From an uncultured Bacilli bacterium (lineage in GTDB: Bacteria; Bacillota_I; Bacilli_A; RF39; UBA660), in the NCBI GenBank assembly GCA_944373135.1, contig CALWAM010000002.1, positions 1 to 32,324 on the forward strand: a stretch of 32,324 bases of DNA, read 5' to 3'. The position numbers and the translations under genes are program-made. Positions 201-18,347 of the stretch are shown here, one piece after another. Below the pieces are notes generated by a model. The model saw only the letters and a list, made by a program, of their open reading frames with translations. It was not told where the DNA came from and did no database searches. Positions within the stretch are counted from its first letter, which is position 1. Each line of letters opens with the position of its first letter.

Positions 201-635
201 ATGTTATTTGATAATAACGATTTTGATATTAGCTTTTTAGTTGGAGGATATCCTAATATAGAAAATAAAAAATTAGTATATACCAAAGAAGAAGGCTTTT
301 TAAAAGGCAATATGTGGGTTGATGAATATAAACCTTATAAAAATTATAATGCTTATGTAATTAATCCTAGGAATGAGAAGGAGTTGTTAATTTTAAAGTT
401 ATATGAACTTGATTTTGCTATTAATGATCTTAATTTGTATTTGGATTTATATCCAAGTGATAAGGAAATCTATAATTTGTTTGTTAAATACAATAAAGAG
501 TATGAAGAGGTTAAAAATAGTTATGAAAAACTTTATGGACCACTATGTTTAACAGATACTGATTATAACAATTATAAATGGGATGATAATCCTTGGCCTT
601 GGGATAAAATGAGTGGAGGTAGTATGTATGTATAA
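201..635 (+). CDS. cotJB: spore coat protein CotJB, with an N-terminal CotJA-like segment
   Basis: AGGAGG lies 8 nt before the ATG. The C-terminal block YELDFAINDLNLYLDLYPSDKEIYNLFVKYNKEYEEVKNSYEKLYGPL matches the CotJB pattern (LYLDTHP...YE..YGPL). The N-terminal EEGFLKGNMWVDEYKPY resembles the CotJA C-terminal motif (aL.kGT.f.eL..PY). The gene overlaps cotJC by 8 nt. Confidence 0.7.
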   Translation: MLFDNNDFDISFLVGGYPNIENKKLVYTKEEGFLKGNMWVDEYKPYKNYNAYVINPRNEKELLILKLYELDFAINDLNLYLDLYPSDKEIYNLFVKYNKEYEEVKNSYEKLYGPLCLTDTDYNNYKWDDNPWPWDKMSGGSMYV

Positions 636-1185
636 ATATGTTAAAAAGTTAAATTACCCTATTAATTTGGATAAAAAAGATTTAAAGATGGCTAAATTGG
701 TTATAACGCAATTAGGTGGAGCTAATGGCGAATTAGGTGCGGCATTAAGATATTTTTCTCAAAAATTTACAATGCCTGATGAAAGAGGAAAGGCCTTATT
801 AAATGATATTGCATGTGAAGAATTAGGACACTGCGAAATGATTGCTACTATATTTAGACAATTAACCAAAGATGCAACATTAGAAGAATTAAAAAATGCT
901 GGATTAGATAGTTATTATACTGAACACAATAAAGGAATATATCCAATAAATGCGAGTGGTGTTGCTTTTACTGCCGATTATTTTGCCTCTGTTAATGATG
1001 TATTTGCTAATTTATCTGAAGATATGGCTGCAGAACAAAAAGCTCGGGTGACATATGAAAATTTAATTGATTTATGTACTGATGATAAATTAAGAGGAGT
1101 TTTATTATTCTTAAGACAAAGAGAAATTGTGCATTTTAATCGGTTTAAAGAATTATATGATTTTTATAAAAAGAAATATAATTAA
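628..1185 (+). CDS. cotJC: spore coat protein CotJC (manganese catalase / ferritin-like family)
   Basis: The translation has the CotJC/Mn-catalase hallmarks GGANGELGAALRYFSQ and EELGHCEMI, plus a C-terminal REIVHFNRF. I prefer the ATG at 628, with GGAGGT 7 nt upstream, over the GTG at 613 in the ORF track. Confidence 0.9.
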   Translation: MYKYVKKLNYPINLDKKDLKMAKLVITQLGGANGELGAALRYFSQKFTMPDERGKALLNDIACEELGHCEMIATIFRQLTKDATLEELKNAGLDSYYTEHNKGIYPINASGVAFTADYFASVNDVFANLSEDMAAEQKARVTYENLIDLCTDDKLRGVLLFLRQREIVHFNRFKELYDFYKKKYN

Positions 1186-6248: not shown

Positions 6249-6285
6249 TATCATACGCCATTATTTCATTTATTTTTCACAAAAT

Positions 6286-6312
6286 AAAGCTGTTGATTTT
6301 TTCAACAGCTTT
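6286..6312 (-). terminator. terminator hairpin downstream of the surface-protein gene
   Basis: Perfect 11-bp stem AAAGCTGTTGA / TCAACAGCTTT with a T/A loop. On the minus strand it is followed by ATTTTGTG. Confidence 0.5.
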
Positions 6313-6333
6313 AGCACCTTATAGTGCGAAGAG

Positions 6334-6403: not shown

Positions 6404-7012
6404 TTAAACGTTATAGAATTTAGAATTTTTTCTAACTACCATTATTACAACTAATGCAACTAATGCGCCGCCACCTAATAAAGCATATGAAGCAAAGGCC
6501 CCAGTATTTGGATCACATTCTTCACCAACACATTCTTCTACGACAAAATCTGGTTCAATACAAATACCTTCACTTGATTCATTAGCATTATCAACAGGTG
6601 TATTATTTACTCTAACATTTTTTAAACAAAAACTACCGCAAGTACCATTTCCGATATCTTGAGCATTTTCACTTAAAGTCATTGTAAATGATCCAACAGA
6701 AACACTACCAGAAATTGCTTCACCAGTTCTTGTAAAATTAATTACAGTATTGGTACTACCATTATTAGCAAAACCAGCTGCTGTGTTAGCAATAGGATTG
6801 CTCATAGTTAAATAATTAGAACTAATTTCAGCAGTAAATGAAGTAATATTATCTGTAAATCCTTGTGCAGTTATAGTACATGTTGTTGATTCTCCTTTTT
6901 TTAATTCATCTTTTTCACATACTAAGCTGACACTTCCTGCATAAGCTTTAATACCAAATCCAAAGGTTGCAACAAATGTTAAAGCAATAAGTTTAGCCGT
7001 ATTTTTTTTCAT
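6404..7012 (-). CDS. secreted cell-wall-anchored surface protein with a cohesin-like beta domain and a DPNTG sorting signal
   Basis: The N-terminal signal peptide is MKKNTAKLIALTFVATFGFGIKAYA. The C-terminus has a tripartite sorting signal: DPNTG, the hydrophobic AFASYALLGGGALVALVVIMVV, and the basic tail RKNSK. The central domain pattern (GESTTCTITAQGF..ITSFTAEISSNYL..ISGSVSVGSFTMTL) looks cohesin-like, but that call is low confidence. Confidence 0.75.
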   Translation of the reverse strand: MKKNTAKLIALTFVATFGFGIKAYAGSVSLVCEKDELKKGESTTCTITAQGFTDNITSFTAEISSNYLTMSNPIANTAAGFANNGSTNTVINFTRTGEAISGSVSVGSFTMTLSENAQDIGNGTCGSFCLKNVRVNNTPVDNANESSEGICIEPDFVVEECVGEECDPNTGAFASYALLGGGALVALVVIMVVRKNSKFYNV

Positions 7013-7091
7013 ATTTACCCTACTTTCTATATTTATCTTTCCCTTATTATGTTTTAATTATAACATATTCTGTAAAAAATAAAAGATTTTT

Positions 7092-7121
7092 TTAGAAAAA
7101 AATGTCAAATTGTGATAAAAT
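7092..7121 (+). promoter_or_regulatory. candidate extended -10 promoter of the sortase gene
   Basis: TTAGAA (7092-7097), an 18-nt spacer, then TGaTAAAAT (7113-7121). Confidence 0.3.
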
Positions 7122-7161
7122 GATTTTAGATAGGAATAATAAAAAGGGAGTAAGATAAATT

Positions 7162-8688
7162 ATGGCTAAAATAATGTTTGAAATAAATAGTAATACTTTA
7201 ATTTTAAATTATAAAAAAAGCATGGATTTTCCCGAAAATTTAACAGATACAAACATTATAAGTCATGATAAGCTGGTATTTTCTACAAAATATATAGATG
7301 TTAATCAAAAATTAGTAAAATTATTTATCAAAGATCTAATAATTGAGAAAAATATTAATTCTGTAATAATAGAAAATCTAGCTATATTAAAAATTTTTGC
7401 TTCCATATTAGATAAAACATTAATTATTGAACGTTTAACAATTCTAGATGATGTAAATTTTTCTTATGAAGCATGTGAAATTTTAATAAAAAGTGGAAAT
7501 ATTAAATTAGTAAACTGTTATGCTATTCCAACATTTATGATAGAGTTACTTGATAAAAATAATATTAAAGTCGAAGCGAGAAGTGAAATACTCTTTGCAA
7601 GTAATTTTATGTTAGAAAATAATCTAAGTAAATTTACTAATATATATTATAAAACATCAATTAGAGTTACGCCAAAATTAAATGAAGCTGATATAGATGA
7701 TTTTAAGTCTTTCTGTTATATCAATAAATATTTAAAAAATATTCATTTTAATAAATATGATAAAGATACTATTCAATTAATTGCTGATATCTTAAAAAAA
7801 TATAAAATTAAAAGAATTAAAATATATATACATGAAAACATTAATAATGCAAAAGATGCCTTAGAATTAAAACAACTAAAGAAAAAGTTATTAAAGGAAT
7901 ATAAATTGTATATAAAAGTTGTTTATTCTAATGAATATATAAAGGATAATTATGCCAAACAAATTATTTTAACTACTTTAAAATATTGTTCTTTGTTAGG
8001 GATTATTATTATATTCGTATCTATTTCTTATATTTTTTTAGATAATAAAATTAGTGAAAGTAATACTAATAAATTTATGGAAGAAATTCATACTATTATT
8101 GAAAATAATACAATCGATACTAATACTGGTGTTTACGTAAGTCCTTTAAATAGTTTATTAGAAATAAATGATGAAACGGTTGGATGGATAAAAGTTAATA
8201 ACACTAACATTGATTATCCAGTGGTTCAACATAGCGATAAAGATTATTATCTAAATCATAACTTCAAAAACGAAAAAGATAGTAATGGATGGGTTTTTAT
8301 GGATCCAAGAAATAACAAAAATAGTTTGGATCAGAATACGATAATTTATGGTCATAATAGATTTTATAGTGGAGTTATGTTTGGTACTTTAGGTAATGTC
8401 TTGAAAGAAGAATGGTATTCTAATCCAGAAAATTTAATTATTACCTTTAATACTTTATATGGAGAATATTCATGGAAAATTTTTTCTATTTATAGTAATC
8501 CTTCCAATGGTGATTATTTAATTACCAAGTTTGATAGTGATATAGAATATAGTAATTTTATTAATATGATTAAAGATAGAAGTATTTTTAATAATGATGT
8601 AGAAGTAAATGTTGATGATAAAATACTTACTTTGTCAACATGTTTAGAAAATGATAAAAGACTTGTAGTACATGCTGTATTGATATAA
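7162..8688 (+). CDS. srtB: class B sortase with a ~270-aa N-terminal cytoplasmic extension
   Basis: The C-terminal ~215 aa carry WIKVNNTNIDYPVVQ, the catalytic His in IIYGHN, the catalytic Cys in TLSTC, and Arg in RLVVHAVL. There is one TM anchor, LKYCSLLGIIIIFVSISYIFL, at about residues 273-293. Residues 1-270 have no TM helix or signal peptide and no motif I recognise. Confidence 0.85.
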   Translation: MAKIMFEINSNTLILNYKKSMDFPENLTDTNIISHDKLVFSTKYIDVNQKLVKLFIKDLIIEKNINSVIIENLAILKIFASILDKTLIIERLTILDDVNFSYEACEILIKSGNIKLVNCYAIPTFMIELLDKNNIKVEARSEILFASNFMLENNLSKFTNIYYKTSIRVTPKLNEADIDDFKSFCYINKYLKNIHFNKYDKDTIQLIADILKKYKIKRIKIYIHENINNAKDALELKQLKKKLLKEYKLYIKVVYSNEYIKDNYAKQIILTTLKYCSLLGIIIIFVSISYIFLDNKISESNTNKFMEEIHTIIENNTIDTNTGVYVSPLNSLLEINDETVGWIKVNNTNIDYPVVQHSDKDYYLNHNFKNEKDSNGWVFMDPRNNKNSLDQNTIIYGHNRFYSGVMFGTLGNVLKEEWYSNPENLIITFNTLYGEYSWKIFSIYSNPSNGDYLITKFDSDIEYSNFINMIKDRSIFNNDVEVNVDDKILTLSTCLENDKRLVVHAVLI

Positions 8689-8717
8689 GCTTTTATCTTT
8701 TTTTTTATTAGTATTTA

Positions 8718-8726
8718 TGGTAAAAT
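8718..8726 (+). promoter_or_regulatory. possible extended -10 element (TGgTAAAAT) ahead of the giant ORF
   Basis: TGGTAAAAT lies 10 nt upstream of the ATG at 8736 and follows a T9 tract at 8698-8706. There is no good -35 element. Confidence 0.25.
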
Positions 8727-8735
8727 ATATTATAT

Positions 8736-11700
8736 ATGATAGAAGAGGAAAATGATAATATGAATATAAGTGAAATAATGAGTACTTTAAATAACATTTC
8801 TAATCATAAATTAAGAAGTAATGAAGATTTACCCCAAGAATTGGTAGACAAGCTAAATAAGGGAGCTTTATCATTACAAGATGAGAAAGAAAAATATTTG
8901 TTTTTAAAAAAAATATATGCCGGTAAAAATCGGGAGAATCTAGGAGCATATGATTACTACTATATTATATTATTAAAAAAACTTTTGTTAGATAAAGATA
9001 CTATTTTCTTATTTTTAGAAGATAGAAATATTTATAGCATTGATATTCTTAGATATTTATGGGATCTTTTATCAGTAGAAGAAAAAAAAGAATATTACAA
9101 TAAAATTACTAAATTTGATTATATTTTAACTGACTTGTTTAATGAAGATATAAAAGATAATTTTGAATTTGTTAATTTATTAAAGGATGATAATTTCGTT
9201 AATAAATTAAAAGATAATTGTATATTAATACCTAGTAAATTATATAATACTAAGTACTTAAATTTAAGTGAAGTAAAATCATCACTTTTAAAAAAGATAA
9301 ATAGTGATAGTCTAACTAGTCTAATTAATTTTAGATATAAATCACCTAAAAGATTAAGTAATTTACTAAATAAAAATATTAATCTAGTTAAATTTATTAA
9401 TAATCAAGGATTAGAATTTAGAATTGGAAAAGAAGATTTACTAAAACTGTTATTACAATTTCCCTATTTAATAACTAAATTAGATAGTATTCATATCATT
9501 CGAGATTTAAGTATGGAAGATATTCAAACTATTGAAAGCAAATTAAAAATATTAGAAAAAAGTAAATTAGTTGAAAATGCTTTATTGTATATTAAACAAT
9601 TATATATAATATTAAAAAATGAAAATAATAGGGATTTAAATTATTATATTACAAAAAGTGCTGATTATAGCATTATCTTCTACCCTTTTAAAAAAATAGA
9701 TTTTGAAGACTATCGTAATTTATTGGTTAAATATGTTAATTTAAAAAAATTCGCACCAAGTGTCATGGAACAAATAGTAGTTGAATATTTTAATGAAGAT
9801 GAAAAATTATCATTATTTAGAGATAGTCAATTCATTGCCGATATGAGTGGCGAAGTATTAACGTCTATACTAGACACAATGAATTTTAGAACAGTTTTTA
9901 ATTTATTACAAAATAAAGAATTATTTTTAAAGATTAAAAATTTAAATTGTAATATTGAGGAATTTGAGTTCTCATTAATGACTGGATATTTAGATGATCC
10001 ATTATTCGTTGAAGTATCAAGTAGTGATTTGGTTTTTAATGCTATTAATTCTTTAAAGACTAATAGTATTCGAAAATATTTAAGATATCCATATATTAAA
10101 AACAAACTAACTTTTAACCAATTTTTAACTCTTGCTAGTAAAGCAAATGTTAAAATACTTGATTTATTTAATGTCTTTAACATAAATGATTTTAATTGGA
10201 GCAGCGAATATAAAACAGTTAATGAATGGTTAAAAATCTATGTCGATAAATGTTTACAAAAAGAAGCATCTTTTAAAATTTTTGGTGATAAAGAAACTTT
10301 GATGCTTTTATACGATTTACCATCTAATGTTATATCGCAAATCAACATGAGTGAAATCGAATATTTACTTGAAACAATTTTAATGAAAAACAAATTAAAA
10401 AATACTCATGATAATATTACTTATGAAGGTGTAAGATCATTGCTAGCCAGCTATATTGCCTTAGGTTTTGATAAAACAGTAAAGTTGATTAACGACGGAA
10501 CTAATAATTTAGAATTAGAAGATATAATTGATTTTAAAACCAAGTTAAAGAAAAGTAAGTTAACTATATTTAAAGTCAATAATCAAAATATCTTTGAACA
10601 ATTGAATGTAAAATTAAAGAACAATTTACTACCTATTGCTTTAATGTATAAAAATGGAATTAGTAATTTTTCTTTAAGCGAATTAATATATGACTTCCCA
10701 TTTTTAAAGAATATAATAAGAATGATGAATGAATCTGGCTATTCTAATTATCAAGAATCTCTTGAGACTATTGAAAGATATATTAATTATTATTTTAATA
10801 ATAGTAAACAAGCCGATATTATTCTTTATAATTTTACGAATGGATTTATCGAATATTTGTTAACAAAAAAAAGTGAAGAACTTGATCAAGGATTGCAAAA
10901 AAATATTATAAATATTCTGTCATTAACAAGCGAAGCACTACATAGACAATTGCAGGGAACAAAAGATAAATTTTTACAAAGAAAGCATTTTATGATTCTT
11001 ACTAATATACTAGACGGAATTGACGATAAAAAAATATCTAGTTTAATAAAAAATAATAATGATTTTATTACAAAGCTTAATAAGGAATTAGCAGAAGAAT
11101 TGACCTCCTTAGGTGTCATTGATAATAGCATTATAAATGGATTAGAAAAAAATTTATTCTATAAGTTTTATAAAAATAAACTAAATATTTTTGATTTTTT
11201 ACTTAATTATTTTAATATTGCTAAACCGATTGGTTATGATGAATACCAAAAGTCCAATAATGAAGAATTGGTTATAAAAAAATTAAATCATTATATTATA
11301 CAAAATACTGATAATATCGAAGACAGAATTAATTGTTTTCAATATGTATTGTATGATATTCCTTTAAATAAGAAATATAAATCTTCAATTATAAATAAAT
11401 TAAATGATTATCGGAGAATTGTCAAAAAATTCATGGGAGAAATATTTATTAACAAAGTTGATATGTTACTTGAATATAAGCGTAAAGATATTTTAGGTGA
11501 TAAAGAAGAAATAACTTCATATGATGAAAAAATAAATGTTATTAAAAAGATTATCAAAAAAACAATTATCTTCTTAAATGAGAATATTAATGATAATAAG
11601 TTGTTAAAAGCTTATCGCAAAGAATATGAATCACAAAAAAAAGAAGATAAATTAGGAATCGCATTAAATAAGAAAAACTTTATAGTAAATCGGATGAGCT

Positions 11701-12833
11701 TTGGTATTCAAAATTTAATTAATATATTTAAAGGATACGATTTTAGAAATGAACAAAAGTTAACTGATGACGATTTTCAATTTCTTTTTGAAAGAAAAAA
11801 TATTTACTTTGCTGGAGTTGGTCTATGCGATTTTTATAATATTCCTTTCGGTCAAATATTAAACAATTTAAATAGTATTAAAAGTATGTACATGGAAGCG
11901 GGAATAAATATACAATCTCTAGATTTAGATAACGCAGCAAAATTAGCTCGATATTTGTTAATAGATGAGAATATTAATCGAAATATACTTATAAACAACG
12001 AAGAAGCTTATGCATACCAAAGAAGTAATATTTACACTAATATTCCTCCGGTGGCTGGTTTTTACAATTCAATATACTACGAAATAACTGATAAAATGAC
12101 GGCTAATATCGATGAGGATAATGTTAGTTGGATTATGGATGATAATAAATGTTTAGTAAAATTAATAGATCCCGTTACCAATGAGGTCTTAGCTCAAGTT
12201 TATGGAGAAAGAATTGGTAACTCACTAGTATTTAATGCTATAGGAATCGATGAAGATTTACTTGAATGTTTGGATAAAGTTGGTGAAAAAATTATTAAAA
12301 AAACACAGCTAGAAAACGAATCAATAGATTTTGTCATTATTCGAACCGATGGCAAAATAAACGGTGTTAGTCTAGATAGTAAAAACTGCAGTTGCTATCA
12401 AGAAATAATCAGTTTATTTAATAAAAACGATTTAGATAATTATAATTATTATATAACCGCCGCAGTTAAAGAAGTAAAAGCTGAAAACTTTATTAATTAC
12501 GAAGTTACTAATAAGTATTTAAGAAAGCGAAATAAAAATGTTTATGTTAGCAATATTGCTGAAATGAAATTAGTTGATAAAGCTAGAAGTATTTTATATA
12601 AATATGCCGAAGAAAATGATAAAAATGTAAGCAGTATAGATGATCTTTTAGCGAATTATAAAGAAATGTATTTAGGCGATGATTGGGTATTAATTATTGA
12701 TAAAAACAACGTGGTTAATTATTACATTACTGGTATTGATGATAGAGCACAAGAAGAAGTTAATGACTTATTAAAAAAAATTGAAAAGGAAATGGTTATA
12801 GATGCTAGGAGTAATTATAGATTACATATCTGA
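8736..12833 (+). CDS. giant hypothetical protein (1365 aa), predicted cytoplasmic, no recognisable catalytic motif
   Basis: This uninterrupted 4.1-kb ORF is in a ~25% GC background where random ORFs are short. It has no TM segment, signal peptide, Walker A, HExxH or DEAD motif. An alternative start is the ATG at 8760 (MNISEIM...), with GAGGA 10 nt upstream. It ends in TGA. Confidence 0.8.
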   Translation: MIEEENDNMNISEIMSTLNNISNHKLRSNEDLPQELVDKLNKGALSLQDEKEKYLFLKKIYAGKNRENLGAYDYYYIILLKKLLLDKDTIFLFLEDRNIYSIDILRYLWDLLSVEEKKEYYNKITKFDYILTDLFNEDIKDNFEFVNLLKDDNFVNKLKDNCILIPSKLYNTKYLNLSEVKSSLLKKINSDSLTSLINFRYKSPKRLSNLLNKNINLVKFINNQGLEFRIGKEDLLKLLLQFPYLITKLDSIHIIRDLSMEDIQTIESKLKILEKSKLVENALLYIKQLYIILKNENNRDLNYYITKSADYSIIFYPFKKIDFEDYRNLLVKYVNLKKFAPSVMEQIVVEYFNEDEKLSLFRDSQFIADMSGEVLTSILDTMNFRTVFNLLQNKELFLKIKNLNCNIEEFEFSLMTGYLDDPLFVEVSSSDLVFNAINSLKTNSIRKYLRYPYIKNKLTFNQFLTLASKANVKILDLFNVFNINDFNWSSEYKTVNEWLKIYVDKCLQKEASFKIFGDKETLMLLYDLPSNVISQINMSEIEYLLETILMKNKLKNTHDNITYEGVRSLLASYIALGFDKTVKLINDGTNNLELEDIIDFKTKLKKSKLTIFKVNNQNIFEQLNVKLKNNLLPIALMYKNGISNFSLSELIYDFPFLKNIIRMMNESGYSNYQESLETIERYINYYFNNSKQADIILYNFTNGFIEYLLTKKSEELDQGLQKNIINILSLTSEALHRQLQGTKDKFLQRKHFMILTNILDGIDDKKISSLIKNNNDFITKLNKELAEELTSLGVIDNSIINGLEKNLFYKFYKNKLNIFDFLLNYFNIAKPIGYDEYQKSNNEELVIKKLNHYIIQNTDNIEDRINCFQYVLYDIPLNKKYKSSIINKLNDYRRIVKKFMGEIFINKVDMLLEYKRKDILGDKEEITSYDEKINVIKKIIKKTIIFLNENINDNKLLKAYRKEYESQKKEDKLGIALNKKNFIVNRMSFGIQNLINIFKGYDFRNEQKLTDDDFQFLFERKNIYFAGVGLCDFYNIPFGQILNNLNSIKSMYMEAGINIQSLDLDNAAKLARYLLIDENINRNILINNEEAYAYQRSNIYTNIPPVAGFYNSIYYEITDKMTANIDEDNVSWIMDDNKCLVKLIDPVTNEVLAQVYGERIGNSLVFNAIGIDEDLLECLDKVGEKIIKKTQLENESIDFVIIRTDGKINGVSLDSKNCSCYQEIISLFNKNDLDNYNYYITAAVKEVKAENFINYEVTNKYLRKRNKNVYVSNIAEMKLVDKARSILYKYAEENDKNVSSIDDLLANYKEMYLGDDWVLIIDKNNVVNYYITGIDDRAQEEVNDLLKKIEKEMVIDARSNYRLHI

Positions 12834-12996
12834 TGGTGATTATTACAAAATTAAAACTGAAGATGGTATATATTTAGCTTATCAAAAGAAAAGTAAAGAT
12901 ATATTCTGTTTAGGTGATACCGTATATTTTAATAAAAAATTTATATTTATAGATAATAAGATTATTAAAACAGCGGTAAATGTTGAAAAATATTAA
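12802..12996 (+). CDS. small hypothetical protein (64 aa) overlapping the 3' end of the giant ORF
   Basis: The ATG comes directly after an in-frame TAG and the ORF overlaps the giant ORF by 32 nt. It has a weak AAGGAAA element 11 nt upstream and is followed directly by the locus terminator. No family is recognised. Confidence 0.35.
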   Translation: MLGVIIDYISDGDYYKIKTEDGIYLAYQKKSKDIFCLGDTVYFNKKFIFIDNKIIKTAVNVEKY

Positions 12997-13029
12997 AAAG
13001 GAATCCAAGTCAAGGCTTAGATTCCTTTT
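12996..13029. terminator. bidirectional terminator closing the sortase/giant-ORF cluster
   Basis: AAAAGGAATC ... GATTCCTTTT stem (12996-13005 / 13020-13029) with an internal AAG/CTT extension. A-run and T-run flanks allow it to act in both directions. Confidence 0.55.
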
Positions 13030-13542
13030 ATTTTACATGTTTAATTATTCTATATACCATTCCCAAAATTATCATTAATAAAATCTCTATAACAATTACT
13101 TGCCACTCATTAACATCAAAAATACTAGCAATTTTAGAAGAATAAGTTGTCATACCTATTGATACAGATTTAGCTATAATAGCTATTGGGGACAATTATT
13201 TTTAAGGGAATAGCTCCTAATGCTGAACCTACACACACAATTTCATCCGGTAAAATAGGAATGGCAAATAAAATACCAGTAGTTAAAAAGGGATTAGTTG
13301 ATACTAATTTTTTATATAATAAAAATTTGTTATTATTTTGATACTTTTTTAAGAATTTAGAACTAAAATAATGGGATATTTTATACATTATAATTATACC
13401 TGTTAAGATACCGATTTGGCCGATGAAAAAAAGTACAATTTGGTCCTATACTAAGTGTCCCAGATAAAATGGTTTTAGCTTCTGGAAATGGTAAACATAT
13501 AGGTTGTAATATACATAATATTAAAAAAACTAAATATTTCAA
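13028..13542 (-). pseudogene. TVP38/TMEM64 (DedA-superfamily) membrane protein gene disrupted by two +1 frameshifts
   Basis: Three consecutive minus-strand frames read as one multi-pass membrane protein. The pieces are LKYLVFLILCILQPICLPFPEAKTILSGTLSIG, then IVLFFIGQIGILTGIIIMYKISHYFSSKFLKK...ILPDEIVCVGSALGAIPLKIIV, then PIAIIAKSVSIGMTTYSSKIASIF..VIVIEILLMIILGMVYRIIKHVK*. The shifts map near the A7/T7 run at 13424-13430 and the G4/C4 run at 13188-13191. The 72-aa ORF at 13170-13388 is its middle piece. Confidence 0.6.
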
Positions 13543-13588
13543 ATTATTCACCAAATGAATTATAACATTTCATTAAGTTTTTGTAAAA

Positions 13589-14620
13589 TTAATTACAAGT
13601 ATATCCACTAGTTGTATAATAGTTTATTAATTCTTCTTTATAATTAAATGATGTTGGATTAGATATTTCTTCTTCACTTGTATATGAAAAATTATAATCA
13701 TTAAATGTAAAGTTATCATTTTGATGAGCATTTTTAAATTCTTCATATTTATCGTTACTAAAGAAAATATTATTACTGGATTTAATTATTTTTACTAATT
13801 CGTTATTATTATTAAAATATAATTTTTCAGTGATTGATACTCTAGTATTATTTATAGTATCAGAGTATGATGGTAAAGTACATAATATAGCAATATTATC
13901 ATCAACTTTATAATTTACTTCAATAGTTGTTTCATTACCTAATTCGTCTTTGGCAATAATTTTAATAGTGTAACCTCCAGCAATAGTTGTATCAGGGGTG
14001 ATTAAAAAGTCGTAAGAGCATCCAGACGGGTCACTACATGAAGCAACAAAATCATCTATGTTATAATTACTATTTAAGGATAAAATAATATTTTCTTTAC
14101 TTGATATAGTAGGTCCTTTAGTATCAACAATATTAATTATACCTTTTTTTGTTTCGCCTTTATAGGTTATTGTATAATTATAGGTTCCTATTTCATCTTC
14201 TTTTACACTATCAAGATTTAATGTATATTGTAGTTCATCAATATTTTCTCTGTTAACATAATCTCGAGGATTATTAGACACTTTATCACCAAGTTCATAT
14301 GTAACATTTTTTATTGTATAATTTTGGGGATTTTTAATAATTCCAAAGTAATAATAACAGCCGCCACAAAGAGCCAAAAGTAAAATCATAGTTATTGATA
14401 TGATAGTCATATGACGTTTTTCTCTTGGTGTTACAATCTTTTTTCTATTTTTATTAACATTATTGACTTTTTTCTCTACTTTTTGATAGGGATTGATTTT
14501 AGAAGGAAGAACTTCATTAACGATTTCTACTCCACCCTCGTTATTTATTTTGGCTAAAACACTTGTCCCATTACTACTTTTTATATCTTCAGTTTTTTTT
14601 ATTTCAATGTTTTCTTCCAT
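13589..14620 (-). CDS. single-pass (N-in) membrane protein with extracellular Ig-like repeats
   Basis: The RBS is AAAGGGGA. An ~80-aa basic cytoplasmic N-tail is followed by the TM helix MTIISITMILLLALCGGCYYYFGII. The beta-rich ectodomain has Ig-like signatures (GTYNYTITYKGETKKGIINIVDTKGPTIS; GGYTIKIIAKDELGNETTIEVNYKV). Confidence 0.7.
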   Translation of the reverse strand: MEENIEIKKTEDIKSSNGTSVLAKINNEGGVEIVNEVLPSKINPYQKVEKKVNNVNKNRKKIVTPREKRHMTIISITMILLLALCGGCYYYFGIIKNPQNYTIKNVTYELGDKVSNNPRDYVNRENIDELQYTLNLDSVKEDEIGTYNYTITYKGETKKGIINIVDTKGPTISSKENIILSLNSNYNIDDFVASCSDPSGCSYDFLITPDTTIAGGYTIKIIAKDELGNETTIEVNYKVDDNIAILCTLPSYSDTINNTRVSITEKLYFNNNNELVKIIKSSNNIFFSNDKYEEFKNAHQNDNFTFNDYNFSYTSEEEISNPTSFNYKEELINYYTTSGYTCN

Positions 14621-15952: not shown

Positions 15953-16204
15953 TTATTTATTGGTAAATTGATAATAATATAATTCACTGATATTAATACT
16001 AGTTTGCTCTAATTCTTCAATTTCTTCATCTATCATTATTTCACTATTGACGAAATCATTAATTATGAATAGTAATTCTTCCATAGTTTGACAACTATGA
16101 TAAGGAATTTGATATTTTTCTAAAACACTTATATCTTTTTCATAAAGATAATAATTATTGACTTTTCTTAAAGTATTTTCACTAATTATTTTATCTAAAT
16201 TCAT
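15953..16204 (-). CDS. small acidic hypothetical protein (83 aa)
   Basis: The ATG overlaps the end of the upstream U32 ORF by 14 nt, with GGTGAGG 12 nt upstream. The ORF is on the same strand as its neighbours and fills the gap between them. No family is recognised. Confidence 0.5.
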   Translation of the reverse strand: MNLDKIISENTLRKVNNYYLYEKDISVLEKYQIPYHSCQTMEELLFIINDFVNSEIMIDEEIEELEQTSINISELYYYQFTNK

Positions 16205-17615
16205 TTTTAGTATACCTCACCTTGTTTTCGCGAATTGAATTTATGCCTAATTGATAATATGGATAGGAATTATTTTTTTGATAATTATAGATAGTCATTA
16301 GACCATTTTTAGTTTTAACTAAAAAATATTTATCTTTACGATCTTTTAAATATAAAATATCTTCATGATATTTATTATTTAAACTAAATTTCGATATCAT
16401 TAATTCTATATAAGAATTAATAATTATTTCAGTATTGGGATGCTTTTTAAAGTTTTTTTCATAAGTATTTAGTAAATTTTTTACTTGACCAGGAAGTAGT
16501 TCACATGAAAGTGTTACTTTATTGGCGCCTAAACTATGAAGAAGTGCTAAAGTGTAAGAATTAGTAACATTTAAAGAATAATCAGTATCAACATTTTTTA
16601 AGGTATTTAAAGCTCCAATTTCACCTACTAATAATGGTGAAGATAAGTTGTGATAATTATCAATTACTCTTGGTGTTTTATAAATGGTATATTTTATTCC
16701 TGGTTCTTCGCAATATATAATATCATATTTATCTTTGGTCTCTGTCAATAAACTTTTATCTTCAATTAAAACTGTTTTTAATTGTTGACATGGGAAATTT
16801 GGCACTTCACGTTTATATTTTCCGGTAATTACCTTAATTTTATACTGACGAAGTGATGATAACTGTTCTAGAGCTTGACGTCTTAATGATGTCAAATCGG
16901 TTATGGGAATAAATGTCAAATTATCAGTATCAATGTCGATATTTGTAAATTTATAAATGGTATTGTTAGTTTTATTTATTTTTTCTAAAATAGTATCTTT
17001 AGAGGTTGGATAGTTAATAGCTTTTTCTAAAATATTTCCTTTAAGTGTTATAGAATTATAATTATCGGAAATAATCATTGTTAGAGGTTGGTTTATTTTA
17101 GCAATAACTTTAACATTTAGAGAAATTTTGCGAGGATTTTGCTGAATATCACTGGCGATTGTTTTAGCTATATGATTAGGTAAAGTTAAATAAACAGGTG
17201 AATTTAACTTGATTTTACCTTTAGTTTTGATTTTTATGATATCGTTTTTCTTAGCTTTTTTTACTAGTTTATTATCAATATACATTTCATTAATTTTAAA
17301 ACCGATATCTGAATCGCCTTCTATTCTAATTCCATCGTCAAAATATAATTCGTCGTTTAATTTTATTTCTATATATTTACTTGATGAAGAAATTACTTTA
17401 CCTATTAAAATACCATTATGATTAGGACGAGCTTCATTAGTAAAATTATTATTATCTTCATGAAAGATAAAGCCTTTAGTAAACCCACGGTTAAATATTT
17501 TTTTTAGATTATCTATTAACATTGGATTAATAAATACTTCATGGTTTTTATAATAATAATCTATTGCTTGGCGATATAACTTAGTAACTGTATAAACGTA
17601 TTCTTTACTTTTCAT
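16191..17615 (-). CDS. U32-family protein, C-terminal portion (post-KIEGRM segment plus long C-terminal extension)
   Basis: It starts at the Met of the conserved U32 block SLKIEGRMKS.EYV and continues with EYVYTVTKLYRQAIDYY. It is in frame with the upstream fragment across a single TGA. Confidence 0.7.
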   Translation of the reverse strand: MKSKEYVYTVTKLYRQAIDYYYKNHEVFINPMLIDNLKKIFNRGFTKGFIFHEDNNNFTNEARPNHNGILIGKVISSSSKYIEIKLNDELYFDDGIRIEGDSDIGFKINEMYIDNKLVKKAKKNDIIKIKTKGKIKLNSPVYLTLPNHIAKTIASDIQQNPRKISLNVKVIAKINQPLTMIISDNYNSITLKGNILEKAINYPTSKDTILEKINKTNNTIYKFTNIDIDTDNLTFIPITDLTSLRRQALEQLSSLRQYKIKVITGKYKREVPNFPCQQLKTVLIEDKSLLTETKDKYDIIYCEEPGIKYTIYKTPRVIDNYHNLSSPLLVGEIGALNTLKNVDTDYSLNVTNSYTLALLHSLGANKVTLSCELLPGQVKNLLNTYEKNFKKHPNTEIIINSYIELMISKFSLNNKYHEDILYLKDRKDKYFLVKTKNGLMTIYNYQKNNSYPYYQLGINSIRENKVRYTKNEFR

Positions 17616-17654
17616 GCGTCCTTCTATTTTTAATGAAGTAATATTTAAATCTAG

Positions 17655-18347
17655 TCATTGATTAATATAAGGAAGAATAGTTAAATCTTTAGTAGATAAT
17701 AAATATTTATTTTTGTGTAATTTTTTTAATTCATTATTATATAGATCATATGGTAAACGACAAGTTCCAGCACAGCAGCCACGATTGCCACTACGCCCTC
17801 CTAATAGTGAGCTCATCAGACACTGACCACTATAACTGATGCATAATGCTCCTTGCGCGAATATTTCTAATTCTATGTTAGTATTTTTACAAATGTCTTT
17901 AATGGTTTCAAGTGAGGTTTCTCGTGCTAATACTACTCTGGTGGCGCCAAGTTTTTCCATGAGTTTTACCCCATCAAGGTTATGAATATGGGCTTGAGTT
18001 GAAACATGAATTTCTAAATTGGGGTATGTTTGATGAAGTAAATCAATCATTCCAAAATCTTGAACGATTACAGCATCTACGTTATTTTCATGTAAGAATT
18101 TTACATAATTCATAAAGTCTGATACTTCATTATCATAAATCAAGGTATTGATAGTAACATATATTTTTACTCCGTATTCATGTGCAATTTTAATAGCTTC
18201 AATGATTTCCTCGTTAGTAAAATTTTTAGCAAAACTTCTTGCGCCAAATGTTTTGCCACCTAAGTATACCGCATCAGCCCCGGCTTCGATAGCATATTTT
18301 AGGCAATCCATATCGCCAGCGGGAGCTAATAATTCTACTTTATCCAT
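17655..18347 (-). CDS. U32-family protein (RlhA/TrhP/PrtC-like), N-terminal TIM-barrel portion with Cys cluster
   Basis: VELLAPAGDMDCLKYAIEAGADAVYLGG and the U32 signature region EIFAQGALCISYSGQCLMSS..GNRGCCAGTCR are present. The ORF ends at a TGA (17655-17657), 13 sense codons before the next ORF. Confidence 0.8.
   Translation of the reverse strand: MDKVELLAPAGDMDCLKYAIEAGADAVYLGGKTFGARSFAKNFTNEEIIEAIKIAHEYGVKIYVTINTLIYDNEVSDFMNYVKFLHENNVDAVIVQDFGMIDLLHQTYPNLEIHVSTQAHIHNLDGVKLMEKLGATRVVLARETSLETIKDICKNTNIELEIFAQGALCISYSGQCLMSSLLGGRSGNRGCCAGTCRLPYDLYNNELKKLHKNKYLLSTKDLTILPYINQ

Follow-up and report, generated by a model that had tools for sequence, protein, structure and literature searches.

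We describe a predicted protein-anchoring locus in a 32,324-nucleotide (nt) stretch of chromosomal DNA of ~25% GC (the window) from an uncultured Bacilli bacterium of the RF39 lineage (contig CALWAM010000002.1, assembly GCA_944373135.1). The locus encodes a class B sortase with a conserved cytoplasmic domain ahead of its membrane helix, a divergently oriented secreted substrate whose sorting signal ends in a conserved tail, and, directly downstream of the sortase, a very large cytoplasmic orphan protein (the giant); this trio is retained in related bacteria. The catalytic class and the enzyme-plus-substrate logic are already known, and novelty lies in the domain on the cytoplasmic side, in the preserved tail of the substrate, and in the giant that persistently accompanies the pair; neither a sortase B extended at its N-terminus nor the giant family was found described in the open-access literature searched, Pfam, NCBIfam, or PDB. 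An earlier reading of this DNA, made without database searches (the sequence-only reading), had proposed a module of four open reading frames (ORFs) at positions 6404-12996. The four ORFs are there, and every feature that it described sits at the position given. The relatives used for comparison come from a one-genome-per-species scan that returned 15 loci, all in metagenome-assembled genomes of uncultured gut Bacilli, including Candidatus Coprovivens; the set was extended by three metagenome contigs and by a closer relative, L048.

The sortase, its cytoplasmic domain, and its substrate

In the usual view, a sortase is a simple ectoenzyme that selects its substrates by an extracellular motif, the positively charged tail of the substrate serving only for stop-transfer. 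Residues 274-502 of the window sortase match the class B model TIGR03064 (MEROPS C60B) with 184.4 bits against a curated cutoff of 153.75 (E 2e-54), and the same protein matches Pfam Sortase (3.9e-12). The catalytic triad His398 (YGHNR), Cys494 (TLSTC), and Arg500 (KRLVVH) is invariant in 16 orthologues and aligns to that of Bacillus anthracis SrtB. The nearest solved structures are SrtB proteins of B. anthracis, Staphylococcus aureus, Listeria, and Clostridioides difficile, all aligned from residue 291 on only; none of the solved sortases has anything that corresponds to the first 290 residues. Instead of the usual short N-terminal anchor right before the catalytic domain, a conserved 266-residue domain precedes the helix formed by residues 267-297. 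Thus the enzyme departs from class B in its architecture, not in its catalytic class.

Residues 1-266 have no match in Pfam, NCBIfam, or the PDB sequences and contain no signal peptide; together with the single transmembrane helix, this means that they must be cytoplasmic, as the sequence-only reading had proposed for a region of ~270 residues. The extension is also a stable property of close relatives: it is present in every one of them, with 42-64% identity to the window protein, and is as well conserved as the catalytic domain (46-64%). A word-indexed protein search with this domain returned eight matches, mostly fragments, the AT-rich low-complexity composition probably saturating the word index. 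The AlphaFold2 model, built from a nine-row alignment, covers the N-terminal domain and not the catalytic one. For residues 1-260 it has a predicted local distance difference test (pLDDT) score of 73-91 and consists of N-terminal beta-hairpins followed by about seven strand-helix (alpha/beta) repeats. The top Foldseek matches are leucine-rich repeat (LRR) proteins (SKP2, tropomodulin/leiomodin, and NLRP) with E-values of 3e-3 to 1e-2 and TM-scores of 0.12-0.39, which weakly suggests an LRR-like solenoid. The likeness to LRR solenoids lies in the alternating short strands and helices predicted for residues ~60-260; the window domain differs from them in lacking their sequence signature, in being bacterial and cytoplasmic, and in being fused to a sortase.

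The divergent gene encodes a protein with a signal peptide (residues 1-25), a Cys-rich mature domain, the motif DPNTG at residues 167-171 (nt 6500-6514), a transmembrane helix at residues 170-196, and the C-terminal tail RKNSKFYNV. All parts of a non-LPXTG sorting signal (motif, hydrophobic helix, and basic tail) are therefore found, and the DPNTG surface protein facing a class B sortase across 149 nt, described in the sequence-only reading, is confirmed. The mature domain belongs to no known family and contains neither NEAT nor any other Pfam domain. The locus is not of the pilus type: there is a single 202-residue substrate without a YPKN motif, and the sortase is of class B by hidden Markov model. 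A riboswitch in the substrate leader was considered and dropped, as the leader has only ~45 nt and no Rfam match. Orthologous substrates are likewise secreted and end in x[P/V/A]xTG followed by a helix and a basic tail. Automated scanning of the loci found 12 proteins with an xPxTG signal, all encoded divergently from the sortase and immediately upstream of it, and two more were read by eye; in one locus (L018), two substrate genes stand in tandem.

The best conserved part of these substrates is their C-terminal end. Mean pairwise identity is 53% in the last 38 residues versus 26% in the mature part, and the consensus of the sorting signal is P.TGaFaSYa.LaaGALiAisAi..AKKnnKFyrV, with the tail AKKnnKFyrV. 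The tail, KKxNKFYRV, and the membrane helix are kept across L001-L018 and L048, although the mature domains barely align. As a rule, the tail of a sorting signal consists of no more than a few basic residues and shows no sequence conservation. The preservation of a nine-residue tail ending in KFYRV therefore suggests that it is read by something in the cytoplasm, and the N-terminal domain of the sortase would be the obvious candidate reader.

Blocks of non-coding DNA in the divergent region are invariant across 14 loci. On the substrate strand, this is the extended -10-like block ATGTTATAAT (minus strand, 7057-7066). On the sortase strand, the window has the extended -10-like sequence TGATAAAAT at 7113-7121, where the invariant block reads TGnTAT(T/A)AT, and a ribosome-binding site, AAGGGAG, also lies in the region. 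We read the blocks as putative back-to-back extended -10 promoters. Between them, at 7086-7103, there is a palindrome of a T-run and an A-run, ATTTTTTTAGAAAAAAAT, which most of the related loci preserve in form and which might act as an operator or as two UP elements.

The giant protein and the conservation of the trio

The sequence-only reading had listed the giant as a motif-less cytoplasmic protein of 1365 residues that begins 47 nt after the sortase. The protein is indeed a cytoplasmic orphan, but its start is more likely at 8760 (M9) than at 8736: the sequence AGAGGA precedes this codon, homologues begin there, and gene callers use it. The giant thus has 1357 residues and follows the sortase after a gap of 71 nt. 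It lacks both a transmembrane helix and a signal peptide and matches nothing in Pfam, NCBIfam, PADLOC, or the PDB sequences, the last of which were also searched without a match using profiles of 4, 20, and 23 giants; no P-loop occurs in these proteins, and no PADLOC model is matched by any of the four proteins of the locus. An ORF of 1357 codons in DNA of 25% GC is not random. Between strains, the ratio of non-synonymous to synonymous polymorphism (pN/pS) is ~0.21 (17 synonymous and 16 non-synonymous differences), that is, the giant is under purifying selection. At longer distances it evolves fast, since even in the closest relative, L048, it retains only 35% identity to the window protein, compared with 61% for the substrate and 61-64% for the sortase.

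AlphaFold2 modeling of residues 166-1365 with five sequences gave a mean pLDDT of 50. The low-confidence model is all-helical to about residue 1120 and ends in a C-terminal alpha/beta module, for which pLDDT is 22-59. Foldseek comparison with PDB produced nothing at E < 0.17 and only non-significant helical-repeat and GNAT-like matches. The C-terminal module contains the motifs RxGN (1151-1154), YxRxR (1253-1257), and YLGDDW (from 1304). Among 74 superfamily members, RxGN, YxRxR, and a few Gly, Asp, and Glu residues, all in this module, are near-universal; the window giant lacks ~31 residues including the motif GNDFLHY that the others keep. Two other identities for the protein were considered and rejected. 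A phage protein found no match in phage records (tblastn) or in viral contigs, and a polymorphic toxin with its immunity protein disagrees with a C-terminal module that is conserved rather than variable and with the absence of a small ORF after the giant in the 15 other loci.

Few close relatives of the giant occur in the word-indexed database, and a search of it with a four-sequence profile added nothing new, again probably due to index saturation by AT-rich low-complexity composition. An exhaustive HMMER search found 227 representative clusters, which fall into a core group (~1360-1390 residues), two smaller groups, and a large group of ~1080-residue proteins. Over its C-terminal ~800 residues, the giant is homologous to the last of these groups (hhalign probability 100%, E 1e-52, 743 columns), and only the sortase-linked subfamily has the N-terminal ~560 residues. 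Pfam scans of 8, 23, and 20 family members detected only DUF4116 (PF13475), and only in distant paralogues (10 of 23, versus none of 20 core-family members). The DUF4116 proteins and the ~1080-residue paralogues share with the giant a large size, a cytoplasmic location, a source in AT-rich bacteria of the gut or rumen, and the lack of a known function; unlike the giant, the paralogues have no sortase neighbors, and some contain DUF4116. Their loci (L019-L046; for example, L020 5174-9333, L042 2461-11541, and L028 3487-10720) include tandem arrays of two or three genes (L042, L028). In at least five of the long loci, the paralogue gene overlaps the stop codon of an upstream gene for a ~250-280-residue M20/M28/M42-like peptidase (motif LLVAHMDTV). 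This ~270-residue partner was considered as a relative of the sortase N-terminal domain and rejected, as hmmsearch found no match at E < 0.1 and the partner is an M20/M28-like peptidase.

Within its own subfamily, the linkage of the giant to the sortase is complete. The extended sortase lies directly upstream of the giant in 16 of the 16 subfamily loci with upstream DNA (window included), and the whole trio, with its divergent x[P/V/A]xTG protein, is kept in all 14 related loci with enough flanking DNA. Both outcomes among relatives by which the sequence-only reading could have failed, a subfamily without sortase linkage and a sortase without its extension, are therefore contradicted. In the core loci (L001-L018), identity to the window is 68-75% for CotJC, 63-65% for methionine gamma-lyase, 44-50% for the sortase, and 24-27% for the giant. 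The genes that stand between the trio and the shared CotJ and methionine gamma-lyase context vary among loci.

Features of the window and neighboring genes

The coordinates of the module and its boundaries are given in Table 1.

Table 1. Features of the sortase locus and its borders in the window
Feature	Position	Strand	Basis
Terminator-like hairpin, 12-bp stem and T-run, 3' of the substrate gene	6285..6313	-	Hairpin scan
Sortase substrate, 202 aa	6404..7012	-	ORF, signal peptide, sorting signal; weak NPXTG/LPXTG anchor matches
Divergent control region, 149 nt	7013..7161	.	Blocks invariant in 14 loci; candidate promoters
Sortase gene, 508 aa	7162..8688	+	TIGR03064 class B sortase
Sortase N-terminal cytoplasmic domain, residues 1-266	7162..7959	+	Model pLDDT 73-91; LRR-like Foldseek matches
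Sortase single transmembrane helix, residues 267-297	7960..8052	+	Topology prediction
Linker and extracellular class B sortase catalytic domain	8053..8688	+	Conserved His398, Cys494 (TLSTC), Arg500
Sortase-giant gap: T9 run with weak hairpin, TGGTAAAAT, ribosome-binding site AGAGGA	8689..8759	+	
Giant cytoplasmic orphan, 1357 aa (ORF opens at 8736)	8760..12833	+	
64-aa ORF, overlaps the end of the giant by 32 nt	12802..12996	+	
14-bp hairpin between A-run and T-run, bidirectional terminator-like site	12996..13029	.	Scan lists minus strand
Fragmented DedA/VTT-domain membrane-protein pseudogene; module boundary, outside the module	13028..13554	-	

The fourth ORF of the proposed module, of 64 codons, is probably a small gene specific to the sub-lineage of the window. 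Its codon-usage score is 0.33, compared with 0.31 +/- 0.09 for real genes and a maximum of 0.205 for 21 spurious ORFs. Seven strains have a single variable site, which is synonymous, in its 163 non-overlapping bases, versus ~6.5% at the synonymous sites of the giant, a comparison that is biased by retrieval of the strains by exact protein match. Outside the window, the ORF is seen only in L048, with a conserved start, where its first 16 codons are better conserved than the overlapping frame of the giant. It belongs to no known family, and no homologue occurs in the 15 other loci, which places it outside the conserved trio: the ORF looks coding, as the sequence-only reading assumed, but its place in the module does not hold.

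The borders of the module are in part as first described. The hairpin that had been named as the terminator after the small ORF is present, but it is bidirectional, and the scan assigns it to the minus strand. Remnants of the DedA/VTT gene beyond it are also found, as three short ORFs that differ by indels between strains, with a weak PF09335 match in sister strains; the accessory status of the region, deduced from this decay, is doubtful because the chromosomal context is shared with relatives. Besides the giant, the sortase has as neighbors in the window a MacB-like ABC protein and a P-type ATPase. Peptidoglycan-related genes of the clade include an M23 peptidase in the window, PBP5 in L048, and MurJ in L049.

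CotJB and CotJC are encoded upstream of the module in the window (201-1185) and in seven relatives. Downstream of the giant in many relatives (L003, L006, L007, L009-L011, L013, and L016-L018), there is a recurring cluster of a convergent gene for a GT2-TPR glycosyltransferase and genes for a CAP-domain protein and a collagen-triple-helix protein. The collagen protein is of the GPT-repeat, BclA-like type; it was identified by Pfam in one locus, and similar collagen-repeat ORFs are visible in several others. Together with CotJB/CotJC, this cluster gives the neighborhood a spore-surface flavor.

Further orphans accompany the locus. A pair of cytoplasmic proteins of ~340 and ~600 residues without a Pfam domain is encoded beyond the substrate gene and on its strand in L001 (4569-7407, minus strand), L009, L012, L013, L016, and L017, and is absent from the window. 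The window encodes a 343-residue membrane-anchored orphan without a Pfam domain (13589-14620, minus strand), which has homologues of 29-34% identity at the same place in L001 and L017; similar ORFs of ~415-430 residues occupy the equivalent position in other loci. At 16191-18347 (minus strand), a U32 peptidase/DUF3656 gene is split into ORFs of 474 and 230 residues. It is a single 718-residue gene in strains of the same species (L047, L050-L053), and its division in this record comes from a frameshift or from a faulty assembly.

Possible control of anchoring from the cytoplasm

We are highly confident that the locus encodes a dedicated sortase B with a single cognate substrate, which by analogy would work like C. 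difficile SrtB. The substrate would be exported by Sec and held in the membrane by its C-terminal helix; the extracellular catalytic domain would then cleave the xPxTG motif (here DPNTG), and the protein would become linked to peptidoglycan. SrtB of C. difficile cleaves PPKTG/SPKTG between T and G and links its substrate to meso-diaminopimelate (mDAP) (PMC4591827). The two systems have in common class B and an xPxTG-type motif ((S/P)PxTG in the substrates CD2831 and CD3246 of C. difficile SrtB, CD2718; PMC4591827), and their catalytic domains are homologous (PDB 5gyj/4ux7, E ~1e-29). However, where the window sortase has 266 cytoplasmic residues, the C. difficile enzyme has no more than a short N-terminal anchor; its substrates are scattered in the genome and controlled by c-di-GMP riboswitches, whereas in the window one substrate is divergently paired and no riboswitch was found, and no giant neighbor has been described in C. 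difficile. The best catalytic-domain matches are the Isd SrtB proteins of B. anthracis and S. aureus (PDB 1rz2, 2oqw, 1ng5, and 1qwz; E 3e-41 to 2e-36), which, like the window sortase, are dedicated enzymes encoded beside their substrate. The Isd loci differ in their NEAT substrates, NPQTN/NPKTG motifs, and haem transport; the window has DPNTG, no NEAT domain, and no haem-transport genes.

The predicted cytoplasmic solenoid ahead of the membrane anchor would add to this scheme a means of tying the sortase to cytoplasmic partners. That it is a protein-binding module, linking the sortase to the giant, to the tail of the substrate, or to both, we regard as close to an even call. The likeliest partner would be the giant helical-repeat protein encoded immediately downstream, acting as a scaffold or gate that positions or licenses the sortase, and the conserved cytoplasmic tail KKxNKFYRV of the substrate would be the second possible one. 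Taken to its full extent, the enzyme would be the first sortase to have a control domain in the cytoplasm, which reads the substrate tail, docks on a giant scaffold, or does both, so that anchoring is controlled from the inside out; the giant would then represent a new family of ~230 clusters, whose sortase-specific N-terminal half evolved for the partnership. We put forward this full version only tentatively.

A number of observations weigh against this explanation, in its full and in its narrower form. No Pfam LRR model was matched in 22 sequences scanned at E <= 1. In the window, the gap between the sortase and the giant contains a weak hairpin, a T9 run, and the extended -10-like sequence TGGTAAAAT at 8718-8726. 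A hairpin with a T-run follows the sortase stop codon in 12 of 17 loci (delta-G -3.6 to -11.5 kcal/mol), and a TGnTATAAT extended -10 element precedes the giant in 11 of 17; the giant thus probably has its own promoter in most lineages, co-transcription is not the rule, and the compact co-transcribed unit of the sequence-only reading is not a strict operon. The ~1080-residue paralogues have no sortase within 6 kb in any of 28 metagenome loci, so that the linkage does not extend to the family as a whole. An extended sortase also occurs without an adjacent giant: in L049, the motifs of the N-terminal domain are conserved and a convergent tRNA methyltransferase takes the place of the giant downstream; this sortase is frameshifted in an assembly of 2.4x. 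Much of the surrounding context is common to the entire clade (CotJB/CotJC upstream; methionine gamma-lyase, SDR, and UvrD downstream), which makes inherited synteny a real alternative, the adjacency being possibly inherited rather than selected. Finally, a mirror-tree comparison of the N-terminal domain with the giant gave r = 0.80, but the control neighbor GT2-TPR gave r = 0.88 with the giant; the signal reflects only shared phylogeny and does not discriminate.

These data can also be explained if the giant is a functionally unrelated neighbor kept by inherited synteny, and the N-terminal domain reads the substrate tail and helix or some other cytoplasmic factor. Such an explanation is the main rival, possible if rather doubtful. 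It would account for the terminator-like hairpins and TGnTATAAT elements that separate the two genes in most loci, for L049, for the paralogues unlinked to sortases, and for the region-wide synteny, and a reader in the cytoplasm or the membrane is called for by the tail and helix of the substrate, whose conservation far exceeds that of the mature protein. It fits less well with an adjacency and orientation that hold in 16 of 16 loci despite a giant at 24-35% identity and varying neighbors, with the three loci where the gap is only 16-37 nt and contains neither a hairpin nor TGnTATAAT, and with the restriction of the N-terminal ~560 residues of the giant to the sortase-linked subfamily.

Two other roles seem less likely than either cytoplasmic control through the giant or an unrelated neighbor. 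The giant may be an enzyme whose C-terminal module prepares the acceptor or the substrate, for example as a GNAT/Fem-like transferase acting on wall precursors, with the helical part as an adaptor. This module is the best conserved part in the 74 superfamily members and has near-invariant polar residues, the low-confidence model contains a beta-beta-beta-alpha-beta pattern with small-domain Foldseek matches that are mostly GNAT (probability 0.6-0.9, E 0.25-0.9), and five paralogues among the long G1 loci are coupled to a peptide-bond enzyme, the M20/M28-like peptidase. At the same time, none of these matches is significant, and the module is modeled with the low pLDDT given above; the acetyl-CoA motif Q/RxxGxG/A does not occur in the giant alignments; the 20-23-sequence profiles match nothing in Pfam or the PDB sequences; and the window giant has lost the segment with GNDFLHY that is conserved elsewhere. 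We consider an enzymatic role improbable.

By analogy with SrtC of B. anthracis, the sortase might instead anchor its substrate on the envelope of the forespore or spore, the giant being a morphogenetic scaffold in the mother cell or forespore. CotJB/CotJC upstream in the window and seven relatives, the BclA-like collagen-repeat, GT2-TPR, and CAP-domain genes downstream in many relatives, and Spore_Cse60 near the L049 sortase are in line with this role, which we nevertheless find very improbable: the conserved promoters appear to resemble housekeeping extended -10 elements and not sporulation-sigma sites, the window itself has no GT2-TPR, CAP, or collagen genes, the neighbors are not constant, and Pfam and NCBIfam detect no sporulation-specific domain in the substrate, sortase, or giant.

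A 266-residue cytoplasmic domain, a conserved substrate tail, and an adjacent 1357-residue protein challenge the view of sortases as ectoenzymes and suggest that anchoring may be selected, positioned, or gated from the cytoplasm. If the link to the giant is only synteny, the finding would be smaller but would keep its novelty in the architecture of the sortase and in the tail of the sorting signal, both undescribed. In addition, the locus offers the first genomic handle on a family of giant orphans, with ~230 clusters, in uncultured, genome-reduced gut Bacilli.

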